A DNA stretch of 64,000 nt from Anaerolineae bacterium (GCA_026991225.1 JALXCB010000044.1:6490-70489); one strand, 5' to 3'. Shown: positions 1,300 to 63,195, numbered from the stretch's first letter. The notes: generated from the letters alone by a model not told the origin. Translations and numbers: made by a program.

Positions 1300-1504
1300 A
1301 GCCGGAGGGCCAGAGGTCAGAGCTACAGAGGTCAGAGCCGCAGAAGCCAGAAGGCCAGAGTGCCAGAAGGCCAGAAAGCCAGAGGGACAGAAGGCCAGAG
1401 GCCCGGCCCCCTGAACACTGAAAACTGAACACTGAACACTCCCCCACCTCCCCTGAAACCCCCATTGACAATTAGCCATTGACCATTCCCCAAAGGAGCT
1501 TCCC
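1300..1504. repeat. intergenic cassette: (GGCCAGARG/GTCAGAGGT)n 9-mer minisatellite + CTGAACACTGA heptamer block + (CATTGACAATTAGC)n promoter-proximal repeat
   Basis: About 11 nine-mer units at 1300-1405; heptamer block 1411-1440; about 1.5 units of the TTGACA-containing 14-mer at 1465-1490. Confidence 0.8.
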
Positions 1505-2635: not shown

Positions 2636-2804
2636 AGGCCGGGGCAGAGGTCAGAGGTCAGAGGCCAGAAGGCCAGAGGGCCAGAGGCCCGGCCCCCTGA
2701 ACACTGAAAACTGAACACTGAACACTCCCCCACCTCCCCTGAAACCCCCATTGACAATTAGCCATTGACAATTAGCCATTGACCATTCCCCAAAGGAGCC
2801 TCCC
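2636..2804. repeat. same intergenic cassette, second copy (about 6 nine-mer units, about 2.5 14-mer units)
   Basis: Read directly; same architecture with different unit counts. Confidence 0.8.
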
Positions 2805-3944: not shown

Positions 3945-4183
3945 AGGCAGGAAGGCCAGAGGTCAGAGGTCAGAACCACAGAGGTCAGAGGCCAGAAGGC
4001 CAAAAGGCCAGAAAGCCAGAGGGCCAGAAGGTCAGAGGCCCGGCCCCCTGAACACTGAAAACTGAACACTGAACACTCCCCCACCTCCCCTGAAACCCCC
4101 ATTGACAATTAGCCATTGACAATTAGCCATTGACAATTAGCCATTGACAATTAGCCATTGACCATTCCCCAAAGGAGCCTCCC
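3945..4183. repeat. same intergenic cassette, third copy (about 11 nine-mer units, about 4.5 14-mer units)
   Basis: CATTGACAATTAGC repeated 4 times plus a partial unit at 4100-4165. Confidence 0.8.
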
Positions 4184-5317
4184 ATGAACCGCTCGCATCT
4201 CCGTTTCCTCCCTCCCCTGCTGCTGGCCGCACTGGTGGCCCTCCTCCTGGCCGGGCTGGCCGCGGCGGGCGGGCCGGGCGTCGGGCCTGCGGCCGTCCCC
4301 CGCCTGGATCCCCCCGCGCCCGTCAACATCACCTTCGACAGCGACGTCCTTTCCGTGGCCGTCCAGGGCGATTACGCGTATGTGGGTTTGGAAAAAGCAG
4401 GCGTAGCCGTTCTTGACATTTCCGATCCCTTGCACCCCATTATCATAAGCACCTTCGATGATCCCGATCCTTCCGGGCTGAATTATGTGGATGAGCTCAT
4501 TCCCAATGGGGATATCCTGATCATTCCCTATGGCTCTGTCTTTTACGTCGTCGATATCAGCGACCCCGCTCATCCCGCCTGGCTCAGTTATAGTCATGAT
4601 GCGGCTTACGAACTGAAGGCCATGGCCCTTTACGACCAGCGGGCTTACGGCCTGGGACCGGACTCCTTCGAGATTTGGGACCTCCAGGACCCCTCCTCGC
4701 CCCAGTTGTTGTACAGCATGCGGGATCAGTACCACCGCCTCTTTTCGGATATGCAGCAGATCGCGGTCGCCCGCAACCCCGCAGATGGCCGCATCTACGC
4801 CTACATGACCGGCGAGCCCCTCTGTTTCCACGACTGCATAGGCAATGGCCTGGTTTTCGTGGATGTGACCGACCCCTCCCAGCCCCAAGTCGTCTACACT
4901 TCAAGGTGGAATGGAGTCACGCTGGCCGCCCAAGAGGAGTATCTCTATTGGAGCGATTCGGATGCCAGTTTGCAAATCCTTGGTCTTACCGACCCGCGAC
5001 AACCAGAACTGTTAAGTCGCATCGATTTAGCCGATATTGGCTTTGCGATGGATAGGAAGGGGAATAGGCTTTTCCTTGCCCTGGCATACGGAGAAGATGG
5101 CCAGATCGATGTTATAGATGTGACTAACAAGACGAAGCCCACTTCCATGACAAGGTATGAAGACGTGAAACACGGGAAAAGTCTATCTCATTCGGATGAA
5201 ACAGGCTGCCTGTTCGTGGCGGAGCTTAGCCGCGGCCTGCGCATCCTTTGCGACATCAACGCCAATCCCCAACCCCCCGCCCAGGTCTGGCTGCCCCTAA
5301 TTGGAATCCAGGGATAG
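4184..5317 (+). CDS. secreted LVIVD-repeat protein, tandem paralog 3
   Basis: Same signal peptide; 3' two-thirds almost identical at DNA level to paralog 2 (3296-3944 vs 4675-5270). Confidence 0.75.
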   Translation: MNRSHLRFLPPLLLAALVALLLAGLAAAGGPGVGPAAVPRLDPPAPVNITFDSDVLSVAVQGDYAYVGLEKAGVAVLDISDPLHPIIISTFDDPDPSGLNYVDELIPNGDILIIPYGSVFYVVDISDPAHPAWLSYSHDAAYELKAMALYDQRAYGLGPDSFEIWDLQDPSSPQLLYSMRDQYHRLFSDMQQIAVARNPADGRIYAYMTGEPLCFHDCIGNGLVFVDVTDPSQPQVVYTSRWNGVTLAAQEEYLYWSDSDASLQILGLTDPRQPELLSRIDLADIGFAMDRKGNRLFLALAYGEDGQIDVIDVTNKTKPTSMTRYEDVKHGKSLSHSDETGCLFVAELSRGLRILCDINANPQPPAQVWLPLIGIQG

Positions 5318-5340
5318 CTCATTCTGCCATCAGGAGGTGC

Positions 5341-8300
5341 ATGGTGAACGTCATCCGACAACGTTTGCTCATGGTCATTATGTTGGTCGCGTTGGCAGGC
5401 ATTTTGCTTCATGTGACCGCCAGGTCCAGCGATCTCGCCGTGGCCAGGAACCAGGCCGCGACGCCGCCGACCGCAACCACGCAGCCCAAGCTGAAGGAAT
5501 TCCTCGATGAAGCGCCTTTTCCTCGAATTTATGCTTTCTATCACAACGCGACATCCTGTGTTTCTGGGGGCCAAAAGGCATACTTTGTTGACCAGATGAA
5601 GTATGTCAATGTGGCGGAACTGCACTATCAGTTGGGCGGCGCCAAAACCGAATCCAGTTGGTGGAGATATCGATATTCGAAAATCGATGTCAATGACAAT
5701 GGCAATTGCGATGACCCGGATGACATGCGTGTCGTCGACTGGTTGGAAAAGCAATGGAGAGATATGCCCGCTAACGCCCACGGCGTCTCAATTCCCCACT
5801 ATCAACTGGCGTTTCTGCCTCTTTGGTATTTCAAAGAGGATGATGCCAGTGGTTTCGACGTTATGCACCGCAGAACCATCGATGACTGTGACGCTGCTTA
5901 CACCTTCATTCCTACACCCACCCCTACCCCCACGAATGCAACGCCTCCAACCCCTGGAGGACCGCCCACGTCCACGCCAGTACCCACCGCAACCCCTGAC
6001 GCTGACTATCTTGAGAAACAGGTCTGGGCCTTGCACGCAGCAACGAATGGCGATGTCATGAGATGGCGGGATGGCGCCAATTTGGCGTTAATCAACGTTT
6101 ACGCAGGCACGCCCATTGCGACTTCGGTGGTCATCCGTTGCGACACCCGCATTACCGAAGGACTGATCCCGGCAGAAACACCGGCGCCGCGCACCTATCA
6201 CGAATGGATGCCACTGTGGGTGGATGCCCGCATCGGCGAAACGCAGTTGGATAACGACCCAAATGAAATCAATCCATGGGATGGCATCCGCATCGACTCT
6301 CAGGCCAATCTCTTCTCCTGGGCCAGGCAAGCGGATTTCGATCTCGATGGACATCTCGATATACGGAAAGAAGAGAGTGGTGGATATGACGACAAGAATG
6401 ATACAGCTTTTGGGCGCCATTATCTCGATGATCTCTATCAGCAGGGAGTGGACAAGCTATTCCAAAACATCTATCAATATCATCCTGGCGAATGGCTCAT
6501 GGGAGGCAATGACGCCTGGCATCCCAATGGGAGCAGCCCCGATGACCCCTCTGGCTTTGGCGAACTGCCTAACATGCATTTCACTATCGCTGAAAACTGG
6601 ACGAAGGATTGGGGGAGTAATGGGCAGTACCATTTTATGCGCTGGCCCAATCCCGATGACGGAGGTTATTCTTCCAACGTAACATTCAGCAAAGCCGTTC
6701 GCATCTGGGACAACTGGGCCCATCACGGAAACGGTCGCAAAGGCTATGTCATTCTATCGAAATGTGACGATGCAGCGAATGATTGCTTGTCCCTTCCCAG
6801 CCAGACCGATGAGACAACCTATGGCTGGGATGATATGCACCGGGAATTCCGCTTCAGCCTGGCTGCGGCGCTGATGCTGGATGCATATCATGCGTTTACG
6901 GGCGCGGGCTATGACATGACGCCCTACTGGTACGACGAGTACGCGGTCATTTGGGATGACAGCAAAGCCCAAGCCGCCCGCACCAACGATGAAAAAGCCA
7001 AAGGCATTGGCTGGCTGGGATATCCGATTTCTGCTCCTTTAGAAGTGGACAGTAGCGGACATGTAACGGGTGTCAACTTGTGTTCGGCAATTGATGGCTG
7101 GCGCAAGGCAACGCCTACTCCCACGCCCGCTCCCGGTGAGACTCCGACACCTAAACCTGCAACAGCCTGGATTCGTTACTTCGAGCATGGCGTGGCCATT
7201 TTGAATCCATCCTCCAATGATATTACAGTGGAGTTGGACCCAAACACGACATATTACCGTATTCAGTGTTCCAGTGGAGGCGGCTCAACGGTTAACGCCG
7301 AGGTTGATTGCCACACCAATAACGGCCAGCCAGTGGACAACCATCAGGTGACGGTTGAGGCGCACGATGGTCTGCTCTTGTATGGCGAAGCGAATCAAAC
7401 GGATAAAATCGCCATTAGCGCATCGCAATATGACATCCAATATTGGGAGGGGCCGGAGTTATTGATCGATGACCGGGGCGAACAAACATGGCAATGGGGC
7501 AATAGAACGGACGAGACCAGTCCCACCATCAGCATCGCGAACGATGAACTGCGCGAGGTGGTTTCCGGCAGGTTGATTTTTCACATCAACGACCCCGATT
7601 TGCAAATGGATATCAAAAATGGAGACATTGTCGACGCCTTTTTGAGCTTACGAACAGATGCCAATCTCAATGACGCATCCATGTGGCTTATCGCTCAAAA
7701 ATCCGCCGAAGACGCTGAGGAGAATTTTCAGAAAATCTTATGGATTGATCCCAATCTGCAGGGACAGGGATGGCATCGCTCACCATCATTGCGAGAGGCT
7801 TTGATCGAGCTTGCCGACCAATCTGGATGGAATGGTCATGTCGAATTTTTCCTTGTTCCCACAGCCTTCAACCACCAATTGGTCTTCGACGCTTACGATA
7901 AAGCAGTGACGAACGCCCCTACACTGGTGATTCTCCGGAAAAAAGTGAGAAGCACCCCATGCGTTACGGAGAATACAACGGGGCCTTATCAGGCCACCTA
8001 CCAACACGGCGTCAACGGCTACTATGGCGGCGAGGACACTTACATCGTCACCACCGACTGGGAGCCCCCCACCACCCACGACACCTTCCCCGCGCTCTAC
8101 ATCCGCGTCAACTACCCCAACGAGCAAATTCACTCCTCCCTCATCCGTTTCAACAACGCCACGCTCCCCGCCGGTGCGGAGATCGTCAAGGCCCAGCTCG
8201 ACATGTTCTACGCTGGGCAATCGGTCAATGGCGGCGACCTCACCGCCTATGTGGCCTACACCAAAGAGCCCTGGAAAGCCTCCGAGACCACCTGGGTCAA

Positions 8301-8574
8301 CTTCCAGACTTCCCTCTACTGGAATGCTACAGGCGTGAAGGGCGTGGACGACCGGGATCCCCACGTCTATGTCCTGCCCGTCAACTACCAGCAAGTGGGC
8401 AACTGGCTCAGCTTCAACGTCACCCAGGTGGTGAAGGACACGCCGGGGGATGATTACGATTTCTTCTTCTACGGCTCCTTCGACGGCGTCAACAAGAACA
8501 TCTACTTCCATTCCAACGACTACTGGAAGGCGAGCGAGCGGCCCAAGCTCACCATCTGGTATCGGATGCCGTAA
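5341..8574 (+). CDS. large N-terminally anchored extracellular protein of unknown function with Pro/Thr-rich linkers (possibly carbohydrate-active)
   Basis: ATG at 5341 preceded by AGGAGG; N-terminal TM helix; PTPTPTPTNATPPTPGG and TPTPTPAPGETPTPKP linkers; no family recognised by eye. ORF-track start at 5248 overlaps the upstream gene and is less likely. Confidence 0.6.
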   Translation: MVNVIRQRLLMVIMLVALAGILLHVTARSSDLAVARNQAATPPTATTQPKLKEFLDEAPFPRIYAFYHNATSCVSGGQKAYFVDQMKYVNVAELHYQLGGAKTESSWWRYRYSKIDVNDNGNCDDPDDMRVVDWLEKQWRDMPANAHGVSIPHYQLAFLPLWYFKEDDASGFDVMHRRTIDDCDAAYTFIPTPTPTPTNATPPTPGGPPTSTPVPTATPDADYLEKQVWALHAATNGDVMRWRDGANLALINVYAGTPIATSVVIRCDTRITEGLIPAETPAPRTYHEWMPLWVDARIGETQLDNDPNEINPWDGIRIDSQANLFSWARQADFDLDGHLDIRKEESGGYDDKNDTAFGRHYLDDLYQQGVDKLFQNIYQYHPGEWLMGGNDAWHPNGSSPDDPSGFGELPNMHFTIAENWTKDWGSNGQYHFMRWPNPDDGGYSSNVTFSKAVRIWDNWAHHGNGRKGYVILSKCDDAANDCLSLPSQTDETTYGWDDMHREFRFSLAAALMLDAYHAFTGAGYDMTPYWYDEYAVIWDDSKAQAARTNDEKAKGIGWLGYPISAPLEVDSSGHVTGVNLCSAIDGWRKATPTPTPAPGETPTPKPATAWIRYFEHGVAILNPSSNDITVELDPNTTYYRIQCSSGGGSTVNAEVDCHTNNGQPVDNHQVTVEAHDGLLLYGEANQTDKIAISASQYDIQYWEGPELLIDDRGEQTWQWGNRTDETSPTISIANDELREVVSGRLIFHINDPDLQMDIKNGDIVDAFLSLRTDANLNDASMWLIAQKSAEDAEENFQKILWIDPNLQGQGWHRSPSLREALIELADQSGWNGHVEFFLVPTAFNHQLVFDAYDKAVTNAPTLVILRKKVRSTPCVTENTTGPYQATYQHGVNGYYGGEDTYIVTTDWEPPTTHDTFPALYIRVNYPNEQIHSSLIRFNNATLPAGAEIVKAQLDMFYAGQSVNGGDLTAYVAYTKEPWKASETTWVNFQTSLYWNATGVKGVDDRDPHVYVLPVNYQQVGNWLSFNVTQVVKDTPGDDYDFFFYGSFDGVNKNIYFHSNDYWKASERPKLTIWYRMP

Positions 8575-8595
8575 AAACGCCTGTTGCGAGGTAAC

Positions 8596-8735
8596 TACCT
8601 TGACAATGTCACATTACGTCATTCCGAGGGAGCGAAGCGACCGAGGAATCTAGCCCGCAGGGCGCTTCGCTAGATTCCTCCGCCCTTCGGTCGTCGGAAT
8701 GACGTGCTTGGAGGTAATTTGACATTGTCGAACTA
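8596..8735. repeat. large imperfect palindrome / stem-loop downstream of the 1108-aa gene
   Basis: Arms GGTAACTACCTTGACAATGTCACATTACGTCATTCCG and its imperfect reverse complement flank an internally palindromic loop (GAGGAATCTAGC...GCTAGATTCCTC). Confidence 0.6.
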
Positions 8736-8744
8736 CTCAGGTGT

Positions 8745-8949
8745 CGCCACCACTTTTTGCCGCGAAGACACGAAGGAAACGAGGGCGCAAAGTCATCCAA
8801 AAAAGGTAACTGCTAAGGTAGTTGGCCCCAATCGCCCCTTTTTTGCCACGAAGACACGAAGGAAACGAAGGCGCGAAGTCATTCAAAAAAGATTTTATCC
8901 GTGTTTCCTCGTATCCGTGTCGAGTGAACAGGGCTACGTTAGCAGTTAT
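8745..8949. mobile_element. MITE-A variant copy (8806-8949) preceded by a partial tandem half-copy (8745-8805)
   Basis: GTAACTGCTAAGGT ... ACGTTAGCAGTTAT; internal sequence matches the outer element at 24178; lies between convergent gene ends. Confidence 0.7.
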
Positions 8950-8953
8950 AGTT

Positions 8954-9496
8954 TCATGTTGCTGACTGCGCGCCATAATGAAACGCGCCGGGAAAATCTT
9001 CGGCAACTTGTTTCTGCTTGCCGATCCACGTTTCGATATCGAGACGAATCACGGCTGTGATCTTCAGGTCTTCGGGTTGGGCGGGAAGGTAATCCGCGTC
9101 TGGTTGCAAATGGGGCGCGTACTTGTCCATGATCATCTGCAAGGCCCGTGCCGCTTCCTCCCCCTCCACCAGGCTCGCCCGCCCGAACAGCATGACGCTG
9201 GCGTATTCCACGCTGAAATTCAGCGCCCGTTTCGCGGGCAGCAACCGGCCCATGCGGAAGACCGTGGCCGACGCCTTGGGATGGTTCCGGGCCAGCGCCG
9301 CGGTGCGCCCCTGGTTGGTGGCGTGGATGTACACCACGCGCCGGGCTTCGTCAAAGGCATACAGCGTGGGGAAGAGAAAGGGCTGATCGTCCTGGCAAAA
9401 GCCCAGCGTGATCACGGCTTCCTCACGCAAAAAATCGGTGATCCAGGCGTCATCGGTGATGGCCCGGTCCTTGCGTCGAATGTTGGTCAGACTCAT
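8954..9496 (-). CDS. pyridoxamine 5'-phosphate oxidase-family FMN-binding protein
   Basis: ~180 aa [33 protein letters not shown]...; PNPOx-like split-barrel pattern; start ATG overlaps pdxT stop (ATGA). Confidence 0.7.
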
Positions 9497-10961: not shown

Positions 10962-11849
10962 TTACCAGCCCCGATACGCGATGCGCTCTTCCTCGGGCAT
11001 GGATTCCACCGTGCGCCCGACCATGGGCTCGCCCAGATTGCGGCTCACCTCGGCCAGGATGGCGGGGTCGCGGTAGTGGGTGACCGCTTTGACGATGGCC
11101 GCGGCCCGCTTGGCGGGATTGCCGCTCTTGAAGATGCCCGAGCCCACGAACACGCCGTCCACGCCCAATTGCATCATCAGGGCCGCGTCCGCGGGCGTGG
11201 CGATGCCGCCCGCCGCAAAATTCACCACGGGCAGCCGTCCCATCTCTGCGGTCAGCTTGACGAGCTGATAGGGCGCGCCGAGGTTTTTGGCGTACGCGTA
11301 CATTTCCTCAGGGGCCATGGTTTGCAGGCGGCGAATTTCGCCCAACACGGCCCGGGCGTGGCGCACGGCCTCGACCACGTCGCCCGTGCCCGCCTCGCCT
11401 TTGGTGCGGATCATGGCCGCGCCTTCGTTGATGCGGCGCAGGGCCTCGCCCAGGTTGCGGCAACCGCACACAAAAGGCACTTTGAAGTCCCATTTGTTGA
11501 TATGGTGCTCCTCGTCGGCCGGGGTCAGCACCTCGCTCTCATCGATGAAGTCCACGCCCAGATACTCCAGGATCTGCGCCTCGACGAAATGGCCGATGCG
11601 CACCTTGGCCATGACGGGAATGGTCACCGCGTCCATGATCTCGAGGATTTTCTCGGGATCGCTCATGCGGGCTACGCCGCCCTCAGCCCGGATGTCGGCC
11701 GGGACGCGCTCCAGCGCCATGACGGCCACCGCGCCCGCCTCTTCGGCGATGCGGGCCTGCTCCGCATTGGTCACATCCATGATCACGCCGCCTTTCAGCA
11801 TCTCGGCCAGGCCCGATTTGACAGTAAATGTGCCGGTAATGGGTTCCAT
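10962..11849 (-). CDS. pdxS: pyridoxal 5'-phosphate synthase lyase subunit PdxS
   Basis: [54 protein letters not shown]...; highly conserved PdxS/SNZ. Confidence 0.95.
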
Positions 11850-12119
11850 AAGTGGATTTTTCCTCCGAATTTTTTATTTAATAGGAATAGCATCTGGGTT
11901 TTGAAGCTGTCCCGCCCACAGGACGAGACCAAAAGCGCTTCTCAACTGACCACTGATTACTGATCACTGGTCACTCCAATTGTACCCCTTTTCCCCGCGT
12001 TTCGTCCAGACGCCAGCAGGAAAAAACGCTCTCATGGATTGTTTTCTTCGGAAATTTCGGGCCTTCCTGTGCTCATGATACAATAATAGGTCTGGAAATC
12101 GGTCGATGCAAGGATTTGC

Positions 12120-15100
12120 ATGAAACGACTGACTGACCAGGCGACTTCACGACTGACCGACCATCCTATGAATCTCCCATCCAAAATCTACCTTCACCGC
12201 CGCCGTCAGGAGCGCCTGCACCGGGCGCAGATGCCCGCGTGGCAGAAACTCCTGGGCGTGGCGGCCATCGCGCTATTCGTCTTCATCACCCTGACCGTTA
12301 CGGCCACAGCCAGCGTTGCCGCGGTCGCGGGCGGCGTCTACTACTATTTCACTCGCAATCTGCCCGATCCCAGCGCCATTGTCACCAAGCAGGAAAACTT
12401 CGAGACGGTCAAGATCTACGACCGCACGGGCAAGGTGCTGCTTTACGAATCCATCGACCCCCGACCCTTCCGCGGCGATCGCACCTACGTCACGCTGGAC
12501 CAGATCAGCCCTTACCTCATCAACGCCACTGTCGCTCTGGAAGACCGATCCTTTTGGGAGAATCCGGGCATCAACCTGCGGGGAATTGGCCGCGCGTTCG
12601 TGCAAAATCTCCAGGGCGGAGCCATTCAGGGCGCGTCCAGCATCACCCAACAGCTTGTCAAAAATGTGATCATCCCGCCTGAAGAGCGCTATCAGCGGTC
12701 CTACACCCGCAAGATCAAAGAGATGCTCATGGCGCTCAAGATCACCCAGAAATATGACAAGACCCAGATTCTGGAGTGGTATCTCAACAACAACTTCTAC
12801 GGCAACTTCAGCTATGGCATCGAATCAGCGGCCCAGACCTATTTCGGGAAACCGGCCAAGGACTTGAATCTGGCCGAGGCGGCCATGCTGGCGGCGCTGC
12901 CCCAGTTTCCGGGCCTGAACCCCATCCAGGCGCCCGAGGACGCGAAGCGTCGGCAGCGCAAGGTGCTGCAGGCCATGGTCGAAGCAGGGTATATCACCCA
13001 GGAGCAGGCGGATGAGGCGTATGCCCAGGAGCTGGATGTGCGGGAATCCGCGCTGGAGCGCTTCGACAACGACATCGCGCCCCACTTCGCGCTTTACGTC
13101 CTCGACCAGCTCAAGAAGGAATTCAACACGCCCGAAGACCCCTACTTCATCTGGCGCAACGGCCTCACCGTGCGCACCACGCTGGATGTGGATATCCAGC
13201 ATTATGTGACCTGCGTAGCCCGACAGCGCGTCGCCCATCTCGCCCACGAAGACCCCACCATCCCCGGCTGTCCCGATCTCGATCCCGAGCCCTTCCTGCA
13301 AAGCGGCAAGCACAGCAAGATCGACCACAATGTCAGCAACGCCGCCGTGGTGGTGCTGGCCCCGAAGACGGGGGAGATTTTGTCCATGCTGGGGTCGCTG
13401 GATTACAACAATCGGGAGATCGACGGCGAGGTGAATATCGCCCTGGCCGACCGCCAGCCCGGTTCCTCCTTCAAGCCCATCACCTACCTCACCGGCTTCA
13501 GCCAGGGGTTGACCGCAGCCACCGTGGCCTGGGACGTGCGCCAGGTCTTCCCTGATGCGGTGGAGCCTTACACGCCCGAGAATTACGACCGCAAGTATCA
13601 CGGCCCCGTGCCCCTGCGCGTCGCCCTCCAGCGCTCCTACAACATCCCCGCGGTGTGGGTGATGAGCCAGGTCGGGGTAAAGAACGTCGTGAATATGGCC
13701 CATCGCCTGGGCGTCACCAGCCTGAACAAGGACTACTACGGCCTCAGCCTCACCCTGGGCGGGGGCGAAGTCAAGCTGCTGGATATGGCCTACGTCTTCG
13801 CCACCTTCGCCAACATGGGCGTGATGAAAGGGGAGCCCGTGCTGCCCCAGGACTTGCGTCCGGGCTATCGCACTCTCGATCCTGTCGCCATTTTGGAGGT
13901 GAAGGATCGGGAAGGGAATATCGTGAAGGAATACGAAGGCCCGCAGGAGCAGCGCGTCATCAGCGAGCAGCTTGGCTATCTCCTGGACAACGTGCTCAGC
14001 GACCCCCGGCCTCGTCCGCCCGCATTCGGAACTTTCGCCCAATACCTGGAACTGCCCGACCGCCCCATCATCGCCAAGACGGGCACCACCAACGACTTCC
14101 GCGATGGCTGGACCCTGGGCGCGAGTCCGCAATACGCAGTGGGCGTCTGGGTGGGCAACGCCGACAATACGCCCATGGAGAGCACGTCGGGCTCGGTGGG
14201 CGCGTCCCCCATCTTCCACGACATCATGGCTTATCTTCACAAGGACAAGCCCGTGGAGAAGTGGGAGGAGCCCGATGGCTTCGTGCGCCGCACCGTCTGC
14301 TACGAGAGCGGCCTGCTCGCCACCGATATCTGCCCGCGCCGTTACACTGAAATCTTCATCGACGGCACCGAGCCCAAGGAGTACGACAACTTCTGGCAGG
14401 TGTTCGAGGTGAACAAGCTGAACGGCAAACTGGCCACCCCATACACCCCGCCCGATCTGATCGAACGCCGCGTCTATCCCGTCTTCCCGCCTGTGGCCAA
14501 GGATTGGGCGCAAGAGCAGGCGGAGTTGGGCAAGATTCAGCTTCCGCCGACGGAATACGACGACACCTTCGGGCCCGTTTTCACCGACGAAGAGGTGGCT
14601 ATCGCCAAGCCCGCGCCTTTCAGCTATATCAAGGGTCAGGTGGAAATCTGGGGCAACGCCCGCAGCGGCGACTTCCGTCTCTACCAGCTTCACTTCGGGC
14701 AGGGCTTGCAGCCCCAGACATGGACCCAGATCGGCCCCGACCATTACAACCAGGTGGACAAGGGCGTGCTCGAGTATTGGGATGTCTCGGGCCTGAGCGG
14801 GCCTTACACCCTGCGCCTTTCCGTGGTCGAAAACAGCGGCAATGTACGCCAGGTGGCCATACCCATCACCGTGGATAACACCCCGCCCACCGTCGTGCTC
14901 AGCACCCCCGAAAATGGGAAAGTGTATGTGAAAGAGGACGATGAGTGGGTGAATATCAACGCCCTGGCCACCGACGACTGGGCCATGGACCGGGTGGTGT
15001 TCTATCTCGATGACACGCCGCTCATCACCACCACGGTCTCGCCTTACAGCGCCAAATGGACCATCACCATGTCGGACACAGTGCCCACGCTGGACATGGA

Positions 15101-16970: not shown

Positions 16971-17190
16971 GCAATTGCTGAAACGCCTCGGGTGTGAGCT
17001 CTATCTCGCGCAAAATCTCACGGATGAGCGGTCGCGCCAGGTCTCTACCGCGATGATGAGGCAAGGTCGTTGTGCGGCCATCTGGATGGCGATAAAATGC
17101 ATGGCTGCCTCGCTGCCTGACCTTTTCAAATCCGAGCCGGAACAACAGTTTTTCCATCGTCTTTGCATCGACGATCGGCAACCGAGTCAC
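16957..17190 (-). CDS. hicA: HicA-family toxin (mRNA interferase)
   Basis: 77 aa, KLLFRLGFEKVRQRGSHAFYRHPDGRTTTLPHH; YcfA/HicA pattern. Confidence 0.8.
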   Translation of the reverse strand: MTRLPIVDAKTMEKLLFRLGFEKVRQRGSHAFYRHPDGRTTTLPHHRGRDLARPLIREILREIELTPEAFQQLLKDL

Positions 17191-17408
17191 CCTGCCACCT
17201 CGATCTGCTGAATGCCCACAAATTGCGGCATGATTTCCAGAATATCCTCTTGTTCTTCCAGACAGAGTTCAAGAACCTCTTTCAGGTTCCTTTGTAATTC
17301 GTCAAGCGTCGCGCCCTGAGTATGCGCGCCAGGAATGCCAGGCACGATGCCAACATAGAGTCTGGTGTCTGGATCGTATTCGATATATGCTGTAAAGACT
17401 TTCATCAT
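17187..17408 (-). CDS. hicB: HicB-family antitoxin
   Basis: 73 aa UPF0150-like; 4-bp overlap with hicA. Confidence 0.75.
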   Translation of the reverse strand: MMKVFTAYIEYDPDTRLYVGIVPGIPGAHTQGATLDELQRNLKEVLELCLEEQEDILEIMPQFVGIQQIEVAG

Positions 17409-17496
17409 TCACCTCCACTTCAATTATGCCCGAACCAGGCGGTTGATGCAATCCCCACACTGAACACTCCCTCACTGATCACTGATTACTGAATCC

Positions 17497-24181: not shown

Positions 24182-24471
24182 CCGCTAACGTAGCCCTGTT
24201 CACTCGACACGGATACGAGGAAACACGGATAAAATCTTTTTTTGTAACTGCTAACGTACCCCGGTTAACAAACCACAAAGGGCACAAAGGCGCCAAGAAC
24301 ACGAAGAAAAAAATGTATAAATTCCCCTTTGTGCCTTTGTGTCTTCGTGTTCTTAGTGGTTTTCGGGTGATGACCTTAGTAGTTACCTTTTTAAATGACT
24401 TCGCGCCTTCGTTTCCTTCGTGCCTTCGTGGCAAAAGAGGGGCTACTGGGGCCAACTACCTTAGCAGTTAC
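24178..24471. mobile_element. composite MITE-A: outer variant copy (TSD GATTCCGA) carrying a nested MITE-A (24244-24386)
   Basis: Outer TIRs GTAACCGCTAACGT / ACCTTAGCAGTTAC with TSD 24170-24177 = 24472-24479; inner element has its own TIRs and a degenerate CTTTTT flanking repeat; the outer body matches the copy at 8806-8949. Confidence 0.75.
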
Positions 24472-24714
24472 GATTCCGAATCCAATTTCCACGGCCGGTA
24501 GCGCGCAAAGCCGGCGATACGAGCAACGGCTCGCCGATGCGAACGAAAACGCCTCGCGGCCAAGTCGGCGCGGGAAGCCAAGCACGTAATGCGTGATGCG
24601 TAACGATCTCACGTTTCACGTTTTCACGCATCACGTCCGTAGCAGACTCGCCCAACCTCGTCCTGGCGTTCCTCAATCCTAATCCTGATCCTACTCCTAT
24701 TTATCAAAGCAGCC

Positions 24715-26115: not shown

Positions 26116-26243
26116 TCTTTATCCAATTGGGGGAACGCTGATGCCGCAGATGGAATGGATGAACTCAGATAAGCATTGAGGGAGTCATCTGCGAAAATCT
26201 GCGTCGCATCAGCGTTCATCAGCGTTCTCATTTCAAACATTTC

Positions 26244-27439: not shown

Positions 27440-27649
27440 ATGTCTGCACGAGAACAAGGCACCGTCAAATGGTTCAACGCCAGCAAAGGCTACGGCTTCA
27501 TCGCTCGCGATGATGGCGAAGACGTCTTCGTCCACTTCTCCGCTATCCAGATGGATGGCTTCCGCACCCTGGAAGAGGGACAGCGCGTCGAGTTTTCCGT
27601 CGAGAGCGGCCCCAAAGGGCTCCAGGCCCGCGACGTCACCGCCATCTAA
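27440..27649 (+). CDS. csp: cold-shock protein (CspA family)
   Basis: [36 protein letters not shown]; SD TAGGAG; long structured 5' UTR. Confidence 0.95.
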
Positions 27650-27681
27650 ACTAAACGCATTTTGAAATCAGGTGTTTTCGG

Positions 27682-27836
27682 GTAACTGCTAACGTACTTG
27701 ACTTTAGACCGCCAAAAGCCACGAAGGCTCGAAGTTTTTCGAAGCCACGAAGGAAAAAATAAAGAAAAATACGTCGTGCCTTCGCTTTTCTTCGTGTCTT
27801 CGTGGCAAAAAGTGGTCGCGATACCTTAGTAGTTAC
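27682..27836. mobile_element. MITE-A copy (155 bp) with 8-bp TSD GTTTTCGG, inserted in a family-E repeat
   Basis: TIRs GTAACTGCTAACGT / ACCTTAGTAGTTAC; direct repeat 27674-27681 = 27837-27844; the uninterrupted family-E copy at 60293-60475 (reverse complement) has a single GTTTTCGG at this point. Confidence 0.85.
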
Positions 27837-28117
27837 GTTTTCGGCCTTGGCCACCCGGAGCTGAAACTCCGGGCTACGAAACGACGCCGGGTGAACCCGG
27901 CTTTCCGCGGCGCGCGACATGCGCCGTAGCCCCATTGATGGGGCGTCGTTATTAGCCCGCAGGTGAACCTCGGGCGGCGGTGCGGCCAGAGAATCGCCTT
28001 TCATGGATGATCCAATGCAAATCAAAAGCCTTGGTTTCAATTTGCTTTCAGTTTAATGCGTTGAATGCAGACGGATGCCTCACTCGATAGCATCCATTTA
28101 TCTGCTATCATCACGCG

Positions 28118-29963: not shown

Positions 29964-30013
29964 TGGACATGGTGCAATCTTTGTAGTACAATTGTATTGC
30001 AAAGAGGTGCAAA

Positions 30014-30313
30014 ATGACCGAGTTCATCACGACAAATATCCGTCTTCCAGTACAATTGCATCGCGAGCTAAAACGTCGCGCGGCGGAGGAGAACAAAAGC
30101 ATGGCGCAAGTGTTGCGCGAGGCTGCGGTGCAATACATCGCGTCAGCCAAAACTTCCAATCACGAGGAGATGGAAGCAAGAGATGATGATCCTTTGTGGC
30201 TGATCGGGACTGATCCTGTGGATCTGGGGGTGACGGATGCTTCCGTGAACCACGATGTCTATCTTTATGGTCCGCTTTCGGATTCGGCCAAAGCTGAGAT
30301 CACAGAAAAATGA
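30014..30313 (+). CDS. ribbon-helix-helix-type antitoxin (VapB-like)
   Basis: NIRLPVQLHRELKRRAAEENKSMAQVLREAAVQY RHH pattern; 4-bp overlap with PIN gene. Confidence 0.55.
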   Translation: MTEFITTNIRLPVQLHRELKRRAAEENKSMAQVLREAAVQYIASAKTSNHEEMEARDDDPLWLIGTDPVDLGVTDASVNHDVYLYGPLSDSAKAEITEK

Positions 30314-30729
30314 GACCCCTTTTCGTTGATACCGCAGCCTGGTTGGCATTGGAATCTCGAAGGGATCAATACCATGATGTCGCCTTTGCGTTTGCACAAA
30401 ATCAGGCACGAGCATTTCAATGGGTCACGACGAATTGGATATTATCCGAAACCGTGACGATGCTACGCAGACGCGCCAACCATGCCATTGCCGTCCGTTT
30501 TATGGAGCGAGTGCGCGCAAGTAAACGATTGCAGATTGTACGTATTGAGCCTCCCCACGAGGAAAGAGCCTGGGTAATTTTCAAGCGTTATGCCGACAAA
30601 GACTTTGGATTTGTGGATTGCACCAGCTTTGCCGTTATGGAGACCTTTGGCATTGCCGAGGCCTTTTCGTTTGACCATCATTTCCGGCAATTTGGATTTC
30701 AAACGCTTCCCCTTCATGCGTTGAGGTAA
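30310..30729 (+). CDS. vapC: PIN-domain toxin VapC
   Basis: [23 protein letters not shown]...; stop 2 nt before the start of the MCM B12 subunit. Confidence 0.75.
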
Positions 30730-30731
30730 TC

Positions 30732-31136
30732 ATGGATAGAAAAGTACGCGTCTTAGTCGCCAAACCGGGCCTGGACGGCCACGATCGCGGGGCCAAGGTC
30801 ATCGCCCGGGCCCTGCGCGACGCGGGCTACGAAGTCATCTACACCGGCATCCGCCAGACGCCCGAGATGATCGCGGAGGCCGCGCTGCAAGAGGACGTGG
30901 ACGTGGTGGGCCTCTCCATCCTTTCGGGCGCGCACATGGCCCTGGTGCCTCGCGTTATCGAGGAGCTGCGGCGGTTGGGCATGGAGGATGTGGTCGTGCT
31001 GGTGGGCGGCATCATCCCCGATGAGGATGTGCCCGCGCTGCTGGATATGGGCGTGGCGGGCGTCTTCGGCCCCGGCACCCTCACCTCCGAGATCGTGGAA
31101 ACCATCGAGAACGCCCTCGGCCGCGAATTGGCGTAA
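30732..31136 (+). CDS. mcmB: methylmalonyl-CoA mutase B12-binding (small) subunit
   Basis: [33 protein letters not shown]; DxHxxG cobalamin-binding motif. Confidence 0.85.
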
Positions 31137-31152
31137 GGATGTTGGATGGCAG

Positions 31153-31190
31153 TCACCACTGATTACTGAACACTGAACACTGATTACTTT
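31153..31190 (+). promoter_or_regulatory. CACTGA(W)TA heptamer array immediately 5' of the meaB start codon
   Basis: CACCACTGATTACTGAACACTGAACACTGATTACTTTCA-ATG; similar arrays at 1411-1440, 2695-2726, 4048-4077, 11942-11977, 17455-17493, 48757-48800. Confidence 0.5.
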
Positions 31191-31192
31191 CA

Positions 31193-32215
31193 ATGACCCC
31201 ATCCACCGTCCCCGAACTCGTCGACGCCCTGCTCGCGGGCAACCGTCGCGCCCTGGCCCGCGTCATCTCCCATATCGAAAACAACACCGACCTGGCCCGA
31301 CCTCTCCTGGCCGCGCTCTATCCCAGGGCGGGGCGGGCGCACATCATCGGCGTCACCGGCTCTCCCGGCACGGGCAAATCCACCCTGGTCAACGTCCTGG
31401 CCGGGGTCTATCGCCAGCGCGACCTCACCGTGGGCGTCATCGCCATCGACCCCACCAGCCCCTTCAGCGGCGGCGCCCTGCTGGGCGACCGGGTGCGGAT
31501 GCGCGATCTGGCGGGGGATCCAGGCGTATTCATTCGATCCATGGCCACGCGCGGCAGTCTGGGCGGGCTGGCCCAGGCCACCGCGGACGTGATCATGGTG
31601 CTGGACGCGGCCGGCTTCGACCGCATCATCATCGAGACGGTGGGCGTGGGGCAGAGCGAAGTGGAGATCGCCAGCGCCGCCTACACCACCGTCGTGGTGG
31701 AAGCCCCCGGCCTGGGGGATGAAGTCCAGGCCATCAAGGCAGGCGTGCTGGAGATCGCGGATATCTTCGCCGTGAACAAGGCGGACCGGGAGGGCGTGGA
31801 CCGCACGGTCATGGCCCTGAAAATGATGCTCAGCCTGGGCGCGCCCGAGAAGTTCCAGGTGATGCATCATGGCCGGATGCTGCCCGTGGAGATTCCCCAG
31901 GCCCGGACGGAGTCCCATGCCTGGACGCCTCCCATCATCAAGACCATCGCCGTCTCGGGCGAAGGCGCGGTCGAACTGGCCGACGCCATCGAGAATCACC
32001 GCCTCTATCTGGAGCAGAGCGGCGGTCGGGTGTTGCGAGATCGACTGCGGGCCGCCACCGAGCTGCGCATGATTTTGCGCGATTACCTGCTGGAAAAACT
32101 CCTGGCCCGCACGCCCGAAGACGTGCTGAAACAGACCATCGACGCCGTCGCCCGCCGTGAGATCGATCCCTACACCGCGGTGCAACAGTTGGTCGATCAA
32201 GTTCGTAACTGCTAA
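31193..32215 (+). CDS. meaB: methylmalonyl-CoA mutase-associated GTPase MeaB/ArgK
   Basis: GVTGSPGTGKSTLVNVL P-loop; last three codons and stop lie inside a MITE. Confidence 0.9.
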   Translation: MTPSTVPELVDALLAGNRRALARVISHIENNTDLARPLLAALYPRAGRAHIIGVTGSPGTGKSTLVNVLAGVYRQRDLTVGVIAIDPTSPFSGGALLGDRVRMRDLAGDPGVFIRSMATRGSLGGLAQATADVIMVLDAAGFDRIIIETVGVGQSEVEIASAAYTTVVVEAPGLGDEVQAIKAGVLEIADIFAVNKADREGVDRTVMALKMMLSLGAPEKFQVMHHGRMLPVEIPQARTESHAWTPPIIKTIAVSGEGAVELADAIENHRLYLEQSGGRVLRDRLRAATELRMILRDYLLEKLLARTPEDVLKQTIDAVARREIDPYTAVQQLVDQVRNC

Positions 32216-32358
32216 GGTCGCGCCGCCGCTTTTTGCCACGAAGACACGAAGAAAACAAAGGCACGACGTATTTTTCTTTATTTTTTCCTTCGTGGCTTCG
32301 AAAAACTTCGAGCCTTCGTGGCTTCTTGTGGCCTTAAGTCGAGTACGTTAGCAGTTAC
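32205..32358. mobile_element. MITE-A copy with TSD TCAAGTTC, inserted in the last codons of meaB
   Basis: TIRs GTAACTGCTAAGGT / ACGTTAGCAGTTAC; TSD 32197-32204 = 32359-32366; meaB stop TAA lies in the TIR. Confidence 0.85.
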
Positions 32359-32393
32359 TCAAGTTCACTGAACACGGACACGGAGGATCCCCC

Positions 32394-42059: not shown

Positions 42060-42316
42060 AGCGTCCTCCTGTTTCGGAAGTGGCGTTGCGTTGGTTTACA
42101 AAAGCAACTCGAAGCCCGCGTTGCGCGAGTCTGCAGCGGACGTGATGCGTGAAAACGTGAAACGTGAGAGCATTACGCATCACGCATTACGTGATTGACT
42201 TCCCGCGCCAACCTGGCCGCGAGGCGTTTTCTGCATCCCAGGATACCCCCCAACCATTCACAAAATGTGATGCGAATGTAAAAAATGTGTCATCCCCCGC
42301 CGCCCAACGGACAAAG

Positions 42317-42390
42317 TGGGGCCCCTCGGGCTTGAACCGAGAACCGGCGGTTTATGAGACCGCTGCTCTAACCACTTGAGCTAGGGCCCC
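42317..42390 (-). tRNA. tRNA-Met (anticodon CAT)
   Basis: Reverse complement folds as cloverleaf: acceptor GGGGCCC/GGGCCCC, anticodon loop CTCATAA, T-loop TTCAAGC; CCA not encoded. Confidence 0.85.
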
Positions 42391-42576
42391 CTATGTGGTT
42401 GCACGCCCCATCGAAAAAACGCTTTGTTGGCGCGGGAAGCCGCGTCGTGAAACGTGATGCGTGATGCGTAACGTTATCACGTTTCACGCATTACGTTTCA
42501 CGTGAGTTGCCGCCTCGGCCAACTTTGGCTTGACGAACCTTTCGCCATCTGCGCCAACGCGCTATCTTCAAAGAAG

Positions 42577-42647
42577 AGCGGGCAACGGGATTCGAACCCG
42601 TGACGAGAGCTTGGAAGGCTCTAGTGTTACCACTACACCATGCCCGC
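42577..42647 (-). tRNA. tRNA-Gly (anticodon TCC)
   Basis: Acceptor GCGGGCA/TGCCCGC, anticodon stem AGAGC/GCTCT with loop CTTCCAA, T-arm GGGTTCGAATCCC. Confidence 0.85.
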
Positions 42648-42792
42648 GCGGAAAACAGTCATCCGTGATGGACATAGAAATTCTACACAGGATCGCGGGA
42701 AATGACAAGTCGAGAAGGAGCACAGATCACAATCTCCCTTCTCTGTGTTCTCTGTGCGATCTCAGTGAACTCGGTGTTCCTCTTTCAAAAAA

Positions 42793-42866
42793 GTCGGGGA
42801 GGCCGGATTCGAACCGACGACCTCTTGGACCCAAACCAAGCGCGCTACCGAACTGCGCTACTCCCC
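42793..42866 (-). tRNA. tRNA-Pro (anticodon TGG)
   Basis: Acceptor CGGGGAG/CTCCCCG, anticodon stem CTTGG/CCAAG loop TTTGGGT, T-arm GTCGGTTCGAATCCGGC. Confidence 0.85.
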
Positions 42867-42872
42867 GATGGG

Positions 42873-43001
42873 AGTAACTGCTAACGTACTCGACTTCAGG
42901 CCACAAGAAGCCACGAAGGGGAAAATAAAGAAAAATACGTCGTGCCTTCGTTTTCTTCGTGTCTTCGTGGCAAAAAGCGGCGGTGCGACCTTAGCAGTTA
43001 C
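42873..43001. mobile_element. MITE-A short variant (129 bp) with TSD CGATGGGA, 6 nt from the tRNA-Pro 5' end
   Basis: TIRs GTAACTGCTAACGT / ACCTTAGCAGTTAC; TSD 42865-42872 = 43002-43009. Confidence 0.85.
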
Positions 43002-43080
43002 CGATGGGATAAGTATAGCGAGATTTGGCCGCAGGGTCAAGGAAAATGGGAAAATGTGAACGGGACGGCGGGGGAAAGTT

Positions 43081-47643: not shown

Positions 47644-48614
47644 TTACAGCTCGACTTCCATCCCCAGCCCCATCGCCTCCGCCCGGGCCAGGACCTGCGC
47701 CGCCGCGGCCGCGTCCTGCACCGCCAGCCCCACGCTCTTGAACAGAGTGATCTCCTCCTCCGACTCCCGGCCAGAAATCTGGCCCAAAAGCAACTGCCCC
47801 AGCGTTCCCGTCACCCGATCGAAGGAATAGAGGCCCGCGCGCACCGGCTTGATCAGATCCCCCGCCTCGTGGGCCGCGGCCATGACGTCATCCACATACA
47901 CCTTCGCCCGCATGATGGTCGACGCGGGGGCTTCCTGCATGTCGCGGGTGTAGGCTCCCACCAGATTGATATGCGCGCCGGGAGCCACGTCCGCATCCAG
48001 AAACACGGGCGTCGTGCTGTCGGTGGCCGCTGTGATGATATCCGCGCCCTGCACTGCCTCTCGCACGTCCACTGCCCGGGCGTTGACGCCCTCCTGACGT
48101 AGTCGCTCGGCCAGGCGCGCCGCGCTCGCCCCGCTTTTGCTGGCGATGCGCACTTCGAAGATCTCCCGCACGGCCAGCACGGCCCGGGCCTGATCATACG
48201 CCTGGCCCCCAGCGCCGATGAGCGCGAAGACCTGCGCCCGGGGGCGAGCCAGCAAGTCGGTGGCCAGACCGCTGGCCGCGCCCGTGCGGATGGCGGTGAG
48301 GGACGCACCCTCCAGCAGCGCCCGGGGCTGGCCCGTGTCCGGGTCCAGCGCGATGACCAGGCCGTGGATCGCGGGCAGGCCGCGGGCGGGGTTGCCGGGG
48401 AAGACGGAAACGATCTTCTCGGTCAGGGCGCGGCTTTCGGGGAGATACGCGGGCATGAACAGACTGACCCCCGCGTCGGCGCTGATGACCAGACGTTGGG
48501 GCGATTGCGCCTGCCCGCGGGCGAGTTGGGCGAAGGCCTGGCGCATGGCGTCGATGGCCTCGGGCATGGGCAGGGCCTGGCGCACGTCGTCGGCGGTGAG
48601 AATGCGTAGTTTCA
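47644..48614 (-). CDS. ornithine cyclodeaminase/mu-crystallin family protein
   Basis: MKLRILTADDVRQALPMPEAIDAMRQAF...IGAGGQA Rossmann motif. Confidence 0.8.
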
Positions 48615-48804
48615 TGGCAATTTTTTCTCCGAATTCGGGATTGCGTCTTTTTGACATTATAAGCGATTCTGAAAAGAACGGAGAATGCGCCATCTTATAA
48701 AAACAACTGGACAATTGAATCGATTGCGGGTATGATCCCAAGGCTGGATCATTCACCTGAACACTGATTACTGAACACTGCACACTGATTTCTCAACGCC
48801 AACC

Positions 48805-52105: not shown

Positions 52106-52382
52106 GAATGGATATTATCGAACCAGAGGGGGCGATCACGCAAATCTGCGTTGAAAATAGAGTTTGGTAAACCGGGAAACCGGTAGACCAGTAGACCGGG
52201 AGGGTGAGCGAATCGGCCCGGTTTCCCTGGTTTCCTGGTTTACCGGTTTACGGGGCTACGTAGCCCGCCATTTTCATCCGTATCGGCAAGCGATCGGTCG
52301 TGTCGCCTGCGTTGAAAACAGGATTAGAGAACGCGGATGACGCAGATTGAAACGGATGAGCGCTGATAATAAAGAAAAAATC

Positions 52383-52535
52383 GTAACTACTAACGTACTC
52401 GATTTCAGGCCTCGAAAAGCCACGAAGGCTCGAAGTTTTTCGAAGACACGAAGGAAAAATAAAGGAAAAACTTCGTGCCTTCGTTTTTCTTCGTATCTTC
52501 GTGGCAAAAAGCGGTGGCGAGACCTTAGTAGTTAC
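52383..52535. mobile_element. MITE-A copy with TSD AAAAAATC, inserted in a family-C repeat
   Basis: TIRs GTAACTACTAACGT / ACCTTAGTAGTTAC; TSD 52375-52382 = 52536-52543. Confidence 0.85.
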
Positions 52536-52738
52536 AAAAAATCTGTGAAAATCATCTGCGAAAATCAGCGTCGCATCCGCATTATCAGCGTTCTCCTTTT
52601 CATCCGTATCGGCGAGCTGTCGCTCGGGCCGAGTGCGTTGAAGATAGAAGGGCAGGCTTGCGACGTTGGCGGGCGGCTTTGTACAATAGCGAAGACATTT
52701 CCAACCCCTCATTCCCTATCCAGACACGCCAACATCCC

Positions 52739-59486: not shown

Positions 59487-59544
59487 CTCTCGACTTTCTT
59501 TTCGCTCCTCCTCCTCCCTGTGGTATACTTTCCCCCGAACTTAT

Positions 59545-59697
59545 GTAACTACTAAGGTCGCGACACCACTTTTTGCCACGAAGACACGAAGAGAACGAAG
59601 GAGCGAAGCCTTCTTCTTTATTTTTCCTTCGTGTCTTCGTAAAACTTCGAGCCTTCGTGGCTTCTTACGACCTAAAGTCGAGTACGTTGGCAGTTAC
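59545..59697. mobile_element. MITE-A copy 30 bp upstream of the SH3-protein gene
   Basis: TIRs GTAACTACTAAGGT / ACGTTGGCAGTTAC; imperfect flanking repeat GAACTTAT / GAACTATC. Confidence 0.75.
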
Positions 59698-59726
59698 GAA
59701 CTATCCTTGTTCCCCCATAAACTTCT

Positions 59727-62671: not shown

Positions 62672-62796
62672 AAAAGCATTGTCCTTTGACTTTGTTGCGT
62701 TTGAATGCACTTGCAAAGGACATCAAACGTCATGCGCTGGTTGACTGACAAATCTTGAGGCTTTCCTTTCCGACCGTATTCACCGAGTAAACTCGG

Positions 62797-62960
62797 GTAA
62801 CTGCTAAGGTATCGCCACCACTTTTTGCCACGAAGACACGAAGAAAAGCCAAGGCACGACGTATTTTTCTTGATTTTTCCTTCGTGTCTTCGAAAAACTT
62901 CGAGCCTTCGTGGCTTTTGGCGGCCTAAAGTCAAGTACGTTAGCAGTTACAAACTCGGGC
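62797..62960. mobile_element. MITE-A copy with TSD AAACTCGG, inserted in a family-F repeat between HMGCS and thiolase
   Basis: TSD 62789-62796 = 62961-62968; the uninterrupted family-F copy at 45225-45360 has a single AAACTCGG. Confidence 0.85.
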
Positions 62961-63195
62961 TCTTTAGGCGCTTCGCGCCTGTGGTCGACCTTCGTCGACC
63001 TGATTTCCATCATGAACATGGACGGCGGAGGCCGTCCACTGGCCGCAGGCCTGGAATGGTACGACTTCAGTCGACAGCATAGGCGACCACAGCAGACCAA
63101 AACGCGTTTTGTCAGCCAATCAGCGTCATGCGTCAAACGTCAAAGAACAGCAACGGAGCGCCTCTGATGACGTTTGACGTTTTACGTTTGACGCC

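Follow-up and report, generated by a model that had tools for sequence, protein, structure and literature searches.

Here we determined that the heptamer NNACTGA is repeated head to tail in seven arrays of the window, meaning the whole 64-kb stretch of DNA that was analysed; every array (7/7) is intergenic, on the plus strand and sense to the next plus-strand gene. With a probability of roughly 0.45, and so tentatively, we read them as heptad arrays born by slippage and transcribed in the sense direction, which would form unstructured, start-free leaders with stops in all frames that aid Shine-Dalgarno (SD)-independent initiation. On our best reading the arrays are generic and evolutionarily disposable, and are neither gene-specific switches nor conserved regulators of meaB or the other genes. 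The host is probably a Caldilineales-like member of the Chloroflexota; the nearest named homologues of its MeaB and DUF1648 proteins belong to Anaerolineae, Caldilineae and Caldilineales, which are all within the Chloroflexota. The arrays, identified with Tandem Repeats Finder (TRF) and a register-aware scan, are as follows:

31156..31192, plus strand, focal array CC-ACTGA TT-ACTGA AC-ACTGA AC-ACTGA TT-ACTTTCA, adjoining the meaB ATG at 31193
17457..17496, plus strand, array ACACTGAACACT..TCACTGATCACTGATTACTGA, ending 4 nt before the ATG at 17497, no SD
48754..48793, plus strand, array CACCTGA AC-ACTGA TT-ACTGA AC-ACTGC AC-ACTGA TTTCT, 11-16 nt before the ATG at 48805, no SD
11943..11975, plus strand, array CA-ACTGA CC-ACTGA TT-ACTGA TC-ACTGG TC-ACT, 144 nt from the PBP1A ATG
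1410..1440, plus strand, LVIVD spacer 1 array (CTGAACA)x4, AAGGAG SD downstream, ATG at 1505
2696..2726, plus strand, LVIVD spacer 2 array (CTGAACA)x4, ATG at 2805
4047..4077, plus strand, LVIVD spacer 3 array (CTGAACA)x4, ATG at 4184

The units repeat with a period of 7 nt in 3.0-4.6 copies (TRF), and the spacer dinucleotides (TT, AC, TC, CC and AA) are mixed within single arrays. Judged against shuffles of the window, the hexamer CACTGA alone is at the level of chance (24 observed, 24.2 expected), whereas the dimer pattern ACTGAWYACTGA has an expectation of 0.01 and was observed 10 times; the non-random signal thus lies in the tandem arrangement. Intergenic DNA makes up 14% of the window, and all five independent arrays lie within it (P = 5e-5); at least three of these five end no more than 26 nt from a co-oriented start (P = 0.0017). 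The original prediction, that such tandem heptamers occur at least seven times, always in intergenic DNA, is borne out by these counts. It had also placed four arrays directly against an SD-less start, which is correct for 31193, 17497 and 48805, three in all. The 11943-11975 array and the LVIVD arrays, which had been grouped with these, stand respectively 144 nt from the PBP1A start and 64-106 nt ahead of start codons that have a clear AAGGAG SD; four of the seven arrays are thus 64-144 nt from a start codon.

Array G+C is 38-45%, compared with 61% for the window, and each unit contains one G. The sense strand of every array has TGA in three frames and not a single ATG, GTG or TTG; read in antisense, each array has 2-5 GTG. 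The genes behind the arrays (meaB, DUF1648/bPH_5, a short-chain dehydrogenase, PBP1A/PdxS and LVIVD) share no functional theme. With seven per 64 kb, or about 1 per 9 kb, the arrays are dense here compared with relatives, which have about one array of at least three units per 130 kb. An Rfam search of the window gave no match for the arrays, three tRNAs being the only matches.

The focal array occupies the 56-nt spacer after the gene for the B12-binding MCM subunit (30732-31136), inside the mcm-meaB operon. Window positions 31153-31192 read TCACCACTGATTACTGAACACTGAACACTGATTACTTTCA, with the meaB ATG following at 31193 and no SD, and a promoter-like site was looked for in the 56-nt spacer and none was found. 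At the orthologous mcm/meaB spacer of relatives the array is absent from L227-L229 (MeaB identity 90, 86 and 84%), and L226 (92%) has other repeats in its place. The missing SD had been tied to the array, a link that does not survive this comparison, as meaB is SD-less in all four relatives (L226-L229), array or not; prs, the gene that follows, has retained GGAGG in three of them, while that of L228 has the weaker TGGAG. Of the three array-free relatives, two have a weakly structured meaB initiation region (TIR), and in L229 it folds to -11.0 kcal/mol. Since meaB can be SD-less and weakly structured in relatives that have no array, the array is not needed for that property. Nor is a missing SD distinctive of the arrays, as an SD is present in only about 43% of the window's other genes.

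Two side observations concern this operon. GGATGTTGGATGG (31137-31149, just past the upstream stop) is pairable with CCATCCACCGTC (31198-31210, meaB codons 2-6); this pairing would loop out the array and the meaB start (MFE -17.5, z = -1.7) and may be due to chance. Between the genes for the large and small methylmalonyl-CoA mutase subunits there is an RHH/PIN (VapBC-like) toxin-antitoxin pair at 29987-30729, which is likewise found in L227 (5068-5777) and is absent from L226, L228 and L229.

The gene at 17497 encodes a DUF1648/bPH_5 membrane protein. Only 2-12 nt separate surE from the DUF1648 gene in four relatives, where the surE stop is overlapped by 0-2 ACTGA units; in L273 and L275, one- and two-unit ACTGA seeds overlap the stop codon itself. 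We tried the stop codon within an array as a clue to its origin and set it aside as trivial, because any ORF that enters an array must terminate there. In the window these two genes are separated by the insertion of a minus-strand toxin-antitoxin-like cassette (a UPF0150/HicB-like gene and its partner) at 16971-17406, and the longer ACTGA array lies at the junction.

At the third start-adjacent locus, a short-chain dehydrogenase gene, the last perfect unit of the array ends 16 nt before the ATG at 48805. The array begins 18 nt downstream of the following site:

48708..48736, plus strand, promoter-like site TGGACA-17-TATGAT, with 10/12 consensus matches (0.1 expected in shuffles), a match to the consensus only

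From its place downstream of this site, the array would sit in a leader of about 60 nt. On the minus strand, the longest ornithine cyclodeaminase ORF (47644-48783) starts at a GTG within the array. The real start of this protein is the ATG at 48615 according to both a Pfam alignment and the way the gene is called in L263, and the array is therefore intergenic, in a divergent spacer of 189 nt.

The divergent pdxS/PBP1A spacer has promoter-like boxes for both genes. An alignment of 11850-12119 with L275 and L273 indicated that the spacer is well conserved, including these boxes:

12008-11979, minus strand, pdxS-side promoter-like box TGGACG-18-TACAAT, conserved in the alignment with L275 and L273
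about 12064-12072, plus strand, PBP1A-side promoter-like box TGnTACAAT, conserved in the same alignment

With respect to pdxS, the array is in the reverse sense and falls where the 5' end of the leader is predicted. The conserved PBP1A -10 box is about 90-125 nt downstream of the array, which is probably upstream of the promoter of its own gene, PBP1A, and is the only one of the seven for which such a position is predicted. In L275 there are 2 units where the window has 4, a difference of 14 nt, or two heptads, between conserved flanks; L273 has unrelated sequence at the site. A conserved 9-bp stem, GGACGAGAC / GTTTCGTCC, flanks the variable array, and a permissive Rfam search of 11800-12200 gave no match.

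The position of this array is one of the points in favor of a DNA-level role, as originally proposed, in which the array would either drive leaderless or short-leader transcription as a promoter or serve as an activator site. An activator could bind where the 11943-11975 array lies, the arrays are oriented and near gene starts, and there is a precedent in the ctxAB promoter of Vibrio cholerae, where heptad TTTTGAT repeats recruit regulators (10.1101/2021.05.14.444153). The ctxAB repeats resemble the window arrays as tandem heptamers upstream of a gene, and their copy number matters. However, they are DNA sites upstream of the -35 box, whereas two of the window arrays are predicted to fall inside transcripts and the strand rule is that of the mRNA. 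None of the window arrays has promoter-like hexamers within it or directly behind it, and a sigma-70-like -10 hexamer was found within none of the seven. The meaB array is intra-operonic, in a 56-nt spacer, and at 48805 a strong promoter-like site precedes the array. In addition, about 80% of forward arrays among the genome matches listed are between co-directional genes, and many arrays in related loci are followed by an ordinary SD. The placement of the meaB and 48805 arrays, as predicted from sequence, and the missing -10-like box argue against the promoter, activator and leaderless options alike, and we regard a DNA element as very improbable. The same two placements were counted in favor of arrays that would lie within transcripts.

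The window encodes four LVIVD proteins, and three paralogous LVIVD spacers carry the remaining arrays, which are identical in all three. These spacers (1300-1504, 2636-2804 and 3945-4183) are mosaics of three tandem families in the order stop, (CAGAGGY/CAGAAGGC)n, (CTGAACA)4, (CCATTGACAATTAG)n and SD. The 14-mer (CCATTGACAATTAG)n is present in 1.5, 2.5 and 4.5 copies over the three spacers, and (CAGAGGY/CAGAAGGC)n is also variable. A hairpin between the CAGAGGY and CTGAACA arrays was considered and rejected, as its folding was not significant (z = +1.0 to -1.5).

Many more tandem families of 6-14 nt are found in the window, for example the 7-8 nt units CAGAGGY, ACGTGAA, CGTGATG, TGACGTT and CACGAAGA; they are intergenic and mostly form inverted hairpin elements. 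Hairpin-repeat sites are at 8575-8977, 24182-24714, 27666-28064, 32216-32393, 42060-43080, 52106-52657, 59487-59726 and 62717-63195. In one MITE-like family, CACGAAG/CTTCGTG arrays are flanked by terminal inverted repeats of the GTAACTGCTAACGTA type; a second consists of (CGTGATG/ACGTGAA)n...(CATCACG/CATTACG)n elements, and a third of octamer elements (GGAAACC/GTAGACC)n...(GGTTTAC)n. These intergenic families are what the original prediction called MITE and REP-like. It had set the ACTGA arrays apart from them, a distinction that is sound in the window, where the array regions form no stable hairpin, or none that is significant against shuffles (z -1.7 to +1.4), and that breaks down elsewhere, where the same heptamers build inverted, strongly folding arrays.

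Within the species, the start-adjacent arrays are stable. The meaB array is identical but for one SNP in 6 same-species contigs, the 17457-17496 array is identical in 8 assemblies and the 48754-48793 array is identical in one (L263), with copy number constant throughout. Because these are independent assemblies, an assembly artefact is ruled out; the look-up needed an identical protein, and therefore these counts sample very close strains only. The combination of arrays that are fixed within a species and change between species by whole heptads or by presence points to slippage-prone simple sequence repeats (SSRs) rather than conserved gene-specific operators. The 4 versus 2 units at the conserved L275 site and the seeds at the surE stop were likewise counted in favor of slippage.

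If the arrays slip, they could also be phase-variable contingency loci, with copy number switching the downstream gene. Heptamer SSRs are slippage-prone, copy number does differ between species, and the neighboring LVIVD 14-mer varies from spacer to spacer (1.5, 2.5 and 4.5 copies). Copy number is nevertheless constant in the 8, 6 and 1 same-species assemblies of the three arrays, the ACTGA array is the same in all three LVIVD spacers, and with 3-5 units only the slippage rate should be low. We therefore give phase variation hardly any credence.

The initiation regions of the three array genes are predicted to be weakly structured. Folded over -45..+18, they have MFEs of -3.6, -4.2 and 0.0 kcal/mol, the last being that of the gene at 48805, compared with -11.1 +/- 5.3 for the window's others. 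The remaining least-structured TIRs of the window carry tandem repeats too, namely the LVIVD 14-mers, (TCCTAA)n and (CATCAGCGTT)2. The (TCCTAA)n repeat, at 24670-24699, is 15-16 nt before the start of a cysS-like gene at 24715 (TIR -0.8 kcal/mol), and (CATCAGCGTT)2, at 26207-26227, is 15-16 nt before the start at 26244 (TIR -4.0 kcal/mol). In the related loci described below, the median TIR MFE is -6.9 kcal/mol with a forward array within 30 nt and -10.9 kcal/mol with none (Mann-Whitney p = 4.5e-10). Compared with shuffles of the same sequence, the three leaders show no consistent deficit of folding (z = +1.4, 0.0 and -1.7), and the low structure is largely a composition effect.

Taken in steps, the leader reading would work as follows. 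NNACTGA arrays would arise and change length by replication slippage in steps of 7 nt. They would be transcribed within the mRNA in the sense direction, so that any action would be at the RNA level and not that of a promoter. An array would then put before the start a G-poor, poorly structured stretch that is free of ATG, GTG and TTG and has UGA in three frames, and such a leader would favor SD-independent loading of the 30S subunit or re-initiation, with S1 or single-strand binders of the cold-shock type as candidate helpers. A further effect would be to shield the start from reading frames upstream of it. The suggestion that the arrays might be a translational element is compatible with the evidence. 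Against the leader reading, the low structure is largely compositional, arrays are absent at orthologous sites and four of seven are not start-adjacent. Generic leader properties also do not explain the preference for the ACTGA core or the reverse-then-forward order seen in other genomes and phages.

The arrays had been put forward as undescribed, and on this point the literature says otherwise, as ACTGA-core heptamers with the same period, orientation, proximity to starts and lack of an RBS were published in 2015. These are the TAACTGA direct repeats of marine Beggiatoaceae, some cyanobacteria and Bacteroidetes (MacGregor 2015, PMC4679880), which are in forward orientation near start codons where the RBS is missing, and for which a translational role was proposed. 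Both they and the window arrays have an ACTGA core and a 7-nt period, are intergenic and point forward toward the start, and both have 2-6 tandem copies, at times split by related heptamers, ahead of functionally unrelated genes. TAACTGA repeats often end a few nucleotides before the start, replacing the RBS, as 3/7 window arrays do. Unlike them, the window arrays never have TA as the dinucleotide and mix their units within an array. No tandem TAACTGA is present in the window, where three singletons occur at chance level. The host is also a high-GC Chloroflexota, a phylum not listed for these repeats in PMC4679880. Since the unit is not TAACTGA, the window arrays are outside the exact TAACTGA family; in anatomy they match it in the respects that could be tested, with adjacency to an SD-less start seen for three of the seven, and are best classed as a Chloroflexota variant of the TAACTGA/STRR class.

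The STRR (short tandemly repeated repetitive) heptamers of cyanobacteria and the heptamer repeats of Nostoc, which also occur near start codons (PMC2670836; bioRxiv 10.1101/2022.06.06.494920), are a second point of comparison. STRR are repeats of (heterocystous) cyanobacteria, with STRR1-3 as their unit sequences. STRR and the window arrays are alike in being intergenic tandem 7-bp units with several unit families per genome, and some STRR/Nostoc copies are next to start codons or promoters while others are hairpins. Roles in transcript stability, translational coupling and regulation have been proposed for STRR, none of them established (PMC2670836; 10.1101/2022.06.06.494920). The window arrays differ in phylum and apparently in unit sequences, and are unpaired, with no significant hairpin. 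More broadly, in the summary given in PMC4679880 of Mrazek et al. 2007, heptanucleotides are the commonest unit among long prokaryotic SSRs of 5-11 nt, with slippage as the accepted origin and a sporadic phylogenetic spread. This long-SSR class has no strand or start-distance rule, whereas the ACTGA arrays obey both.

Arrays of the same kind were then compared across other genomes and phages, using 99 viral loci (L007-L105) from a four-unit pattern and the genome loci L106-L225 (at least 120 matches), with gene contexts from a self-trained frame-composition caller that was checked on the window. Among the genome matches listed, arrays within 30 nt upstream of a start are forward in 50 cases and reverse in 2, over about 50 species (p = 6e-13); on viral contigs the figures are 102 and 14. 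Within 30 nt after a stop the bias is the opposite, with 43 reverse and 12 forward arrays among the genome matches listed and 78 and 19 on viral contigs. Forward arrays are about four times commoner near starts than near stops in the genome matches listed. A check for an orientation artefact, in which reverse arrays are swallowed by over-extended ORFs, added 2 further reverse cases only. The arrays in related loci are intergenic, the few ORF-internal ones being antisense.

At least 10 phyla are represented among the matches listed, with Chloroflexota supplying the most rows; the others include Planctomycetota, Bacteroidota, Verrucomicrobiota, Proteobacteria (including Parabeggiatoa), Desulfobacterota, Cyanobacteria and Gemmatimonadota. 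Some of the Chloroflexota arrays resemble those of the window, for example ...ACTGAACACTGA-ATG in L168 and ...ACTGATAACTGAca-ATG in L110. The core itself is also preferred. In viral contigs there are 99 four-unit stretches of ACTGA compared with 21, 11 and 1 for the same-composition cores AGTCA, ATGCA and GATCA, so that ACTGA is favored 5- to 100-fold over permuted cores. Viral contigs with arrays are often 58-62% G+C and have up to two arrays per kb.

One of these, L035 (IMGVR_UViG_3300038416_000315), contains a genuine tailed-phage structural module at 100-9130, and its capsid protein has distant cultured relatives only. Nearly every spacer in it has the layout stop codon, (TCAGTNN)n, short loop, (NNACTGA)n, SD and ATG, which is also found in L010, L028, L044, L071, L075, L084 and L094. 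A DNA search for isolated phages with such arrays found none, and the low-complexity filter may hide them. Over the 99 viral and 120 listed genome loci, spacers that share both orientations are always reverse-then-forward (132 versus 0). These paired spacers fold strongly (median z = -6.9), and in phages they may be hairpins for RNase III processing or translational coupling. Hairpin stability does not explain the order. As an inverted repeat reads alike on both strands, the reverse-then-forward asymmetry belongs to the palindrome itself. A three-frame stop fence was also considered as a rule for both orientations and was rejected because AC spacers, which give no sense-strand stops, are as frequent in reverse arrays after stops as in forward arrays.

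In another account, the arrays are tolerated slippage debris with no positive function: heptamer SSRs would expand wherever they are harmless, and their strand and position bias would come from purifying filters alone, for example against a GTG or ATG beside the start. Arrays are not kept at orthologous sites and their density differs strongly among close relatives, the conserved pdxS/PBP1A site differs in length by whole heptads, and many other 6-14 nt tandem families share the window. The downstream genes have no common function, which is also what MacGregor found for TAACTGA repeats (PMC4679880). The forward bias of unpaired arrays seems weaker when the reverse strand is start-free (10:4 forward to reverse, versus 69:12 otherwise), a difference that is not significant. 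A filter alone, however, predicts no enrichment at starts, yet the window has P = 0.0017 and the listed genome loci have about four times as many arrays at starts as at stops. It also leaves unaccounted for the preference for the ACTGA core and the recurrence of this core in at least 10 phyla among the matches listed. We consider debris rather unlikely.

The preference for one core could alternatively mean that the arrays are multimeric sites for a sequence-specific single-strand RNA-binding factor and that the genes behind them form a post-transcriptional regulon. A specific RNA-binding factor was already proposed by MacGregor for TAACTGA repeats (PMC4679880). Such a factor would fit the strict strand rule relative to the transcript and a specific core that is common to phyla and phages, and the 7-nt period is compatible with the binding of a single small domain to each unit. 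Cold-shock domains bind roughly 7-nt sites, and a cold-shock-domain protein is one candidate, along with S1, an unknown protein or the ribosome itself. The window does contain a cold-shock-domain gene (27440-27649); genes of this kind are ubiquitous, however, and its proximity is not evidence. The spacer dinucleotides are heterogeneous, and with arrays gained and lost among close relatives before unrelated genes the regulon would have to be very fluid. We think such a factor unlikely.

Returning to SD-independent leaders, occurrence of ACTGA heptads before starts in at least 10 phyla among the matches listed and in phages, with a near-absolute strand rule, makes them a testable candidate for an SD-independent leader or factor site. 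A bolder and distinctly unlikely extension, which we offer as speculation, is that NNACUGA arrays are a cross-phylum, strand-specific RNA signal that is read by conserved machinery and replaces or supplements the SD, the inverted form being a hairpin for translational coupling or processing. The reader of this signal may be the ribosome or S1, a cold-shock-type protein or another factor.

The window alone gives a modest result, in that the arrays are real and their class was already described. The main added value is outside it, in the breadth of phyla and phages, the near-absolute strand rule and the reverse-then-forward architecture. Translation start on SD-less genes is poorly understood, notably in Bacteroidota, cyanobacteria and, as the window suggests, some Chloroflexota. 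If the cross-phylum signal is true, the window would be the first Chloroflexota example of a widespread and unrecognised initiation code, possibly spread by phages.
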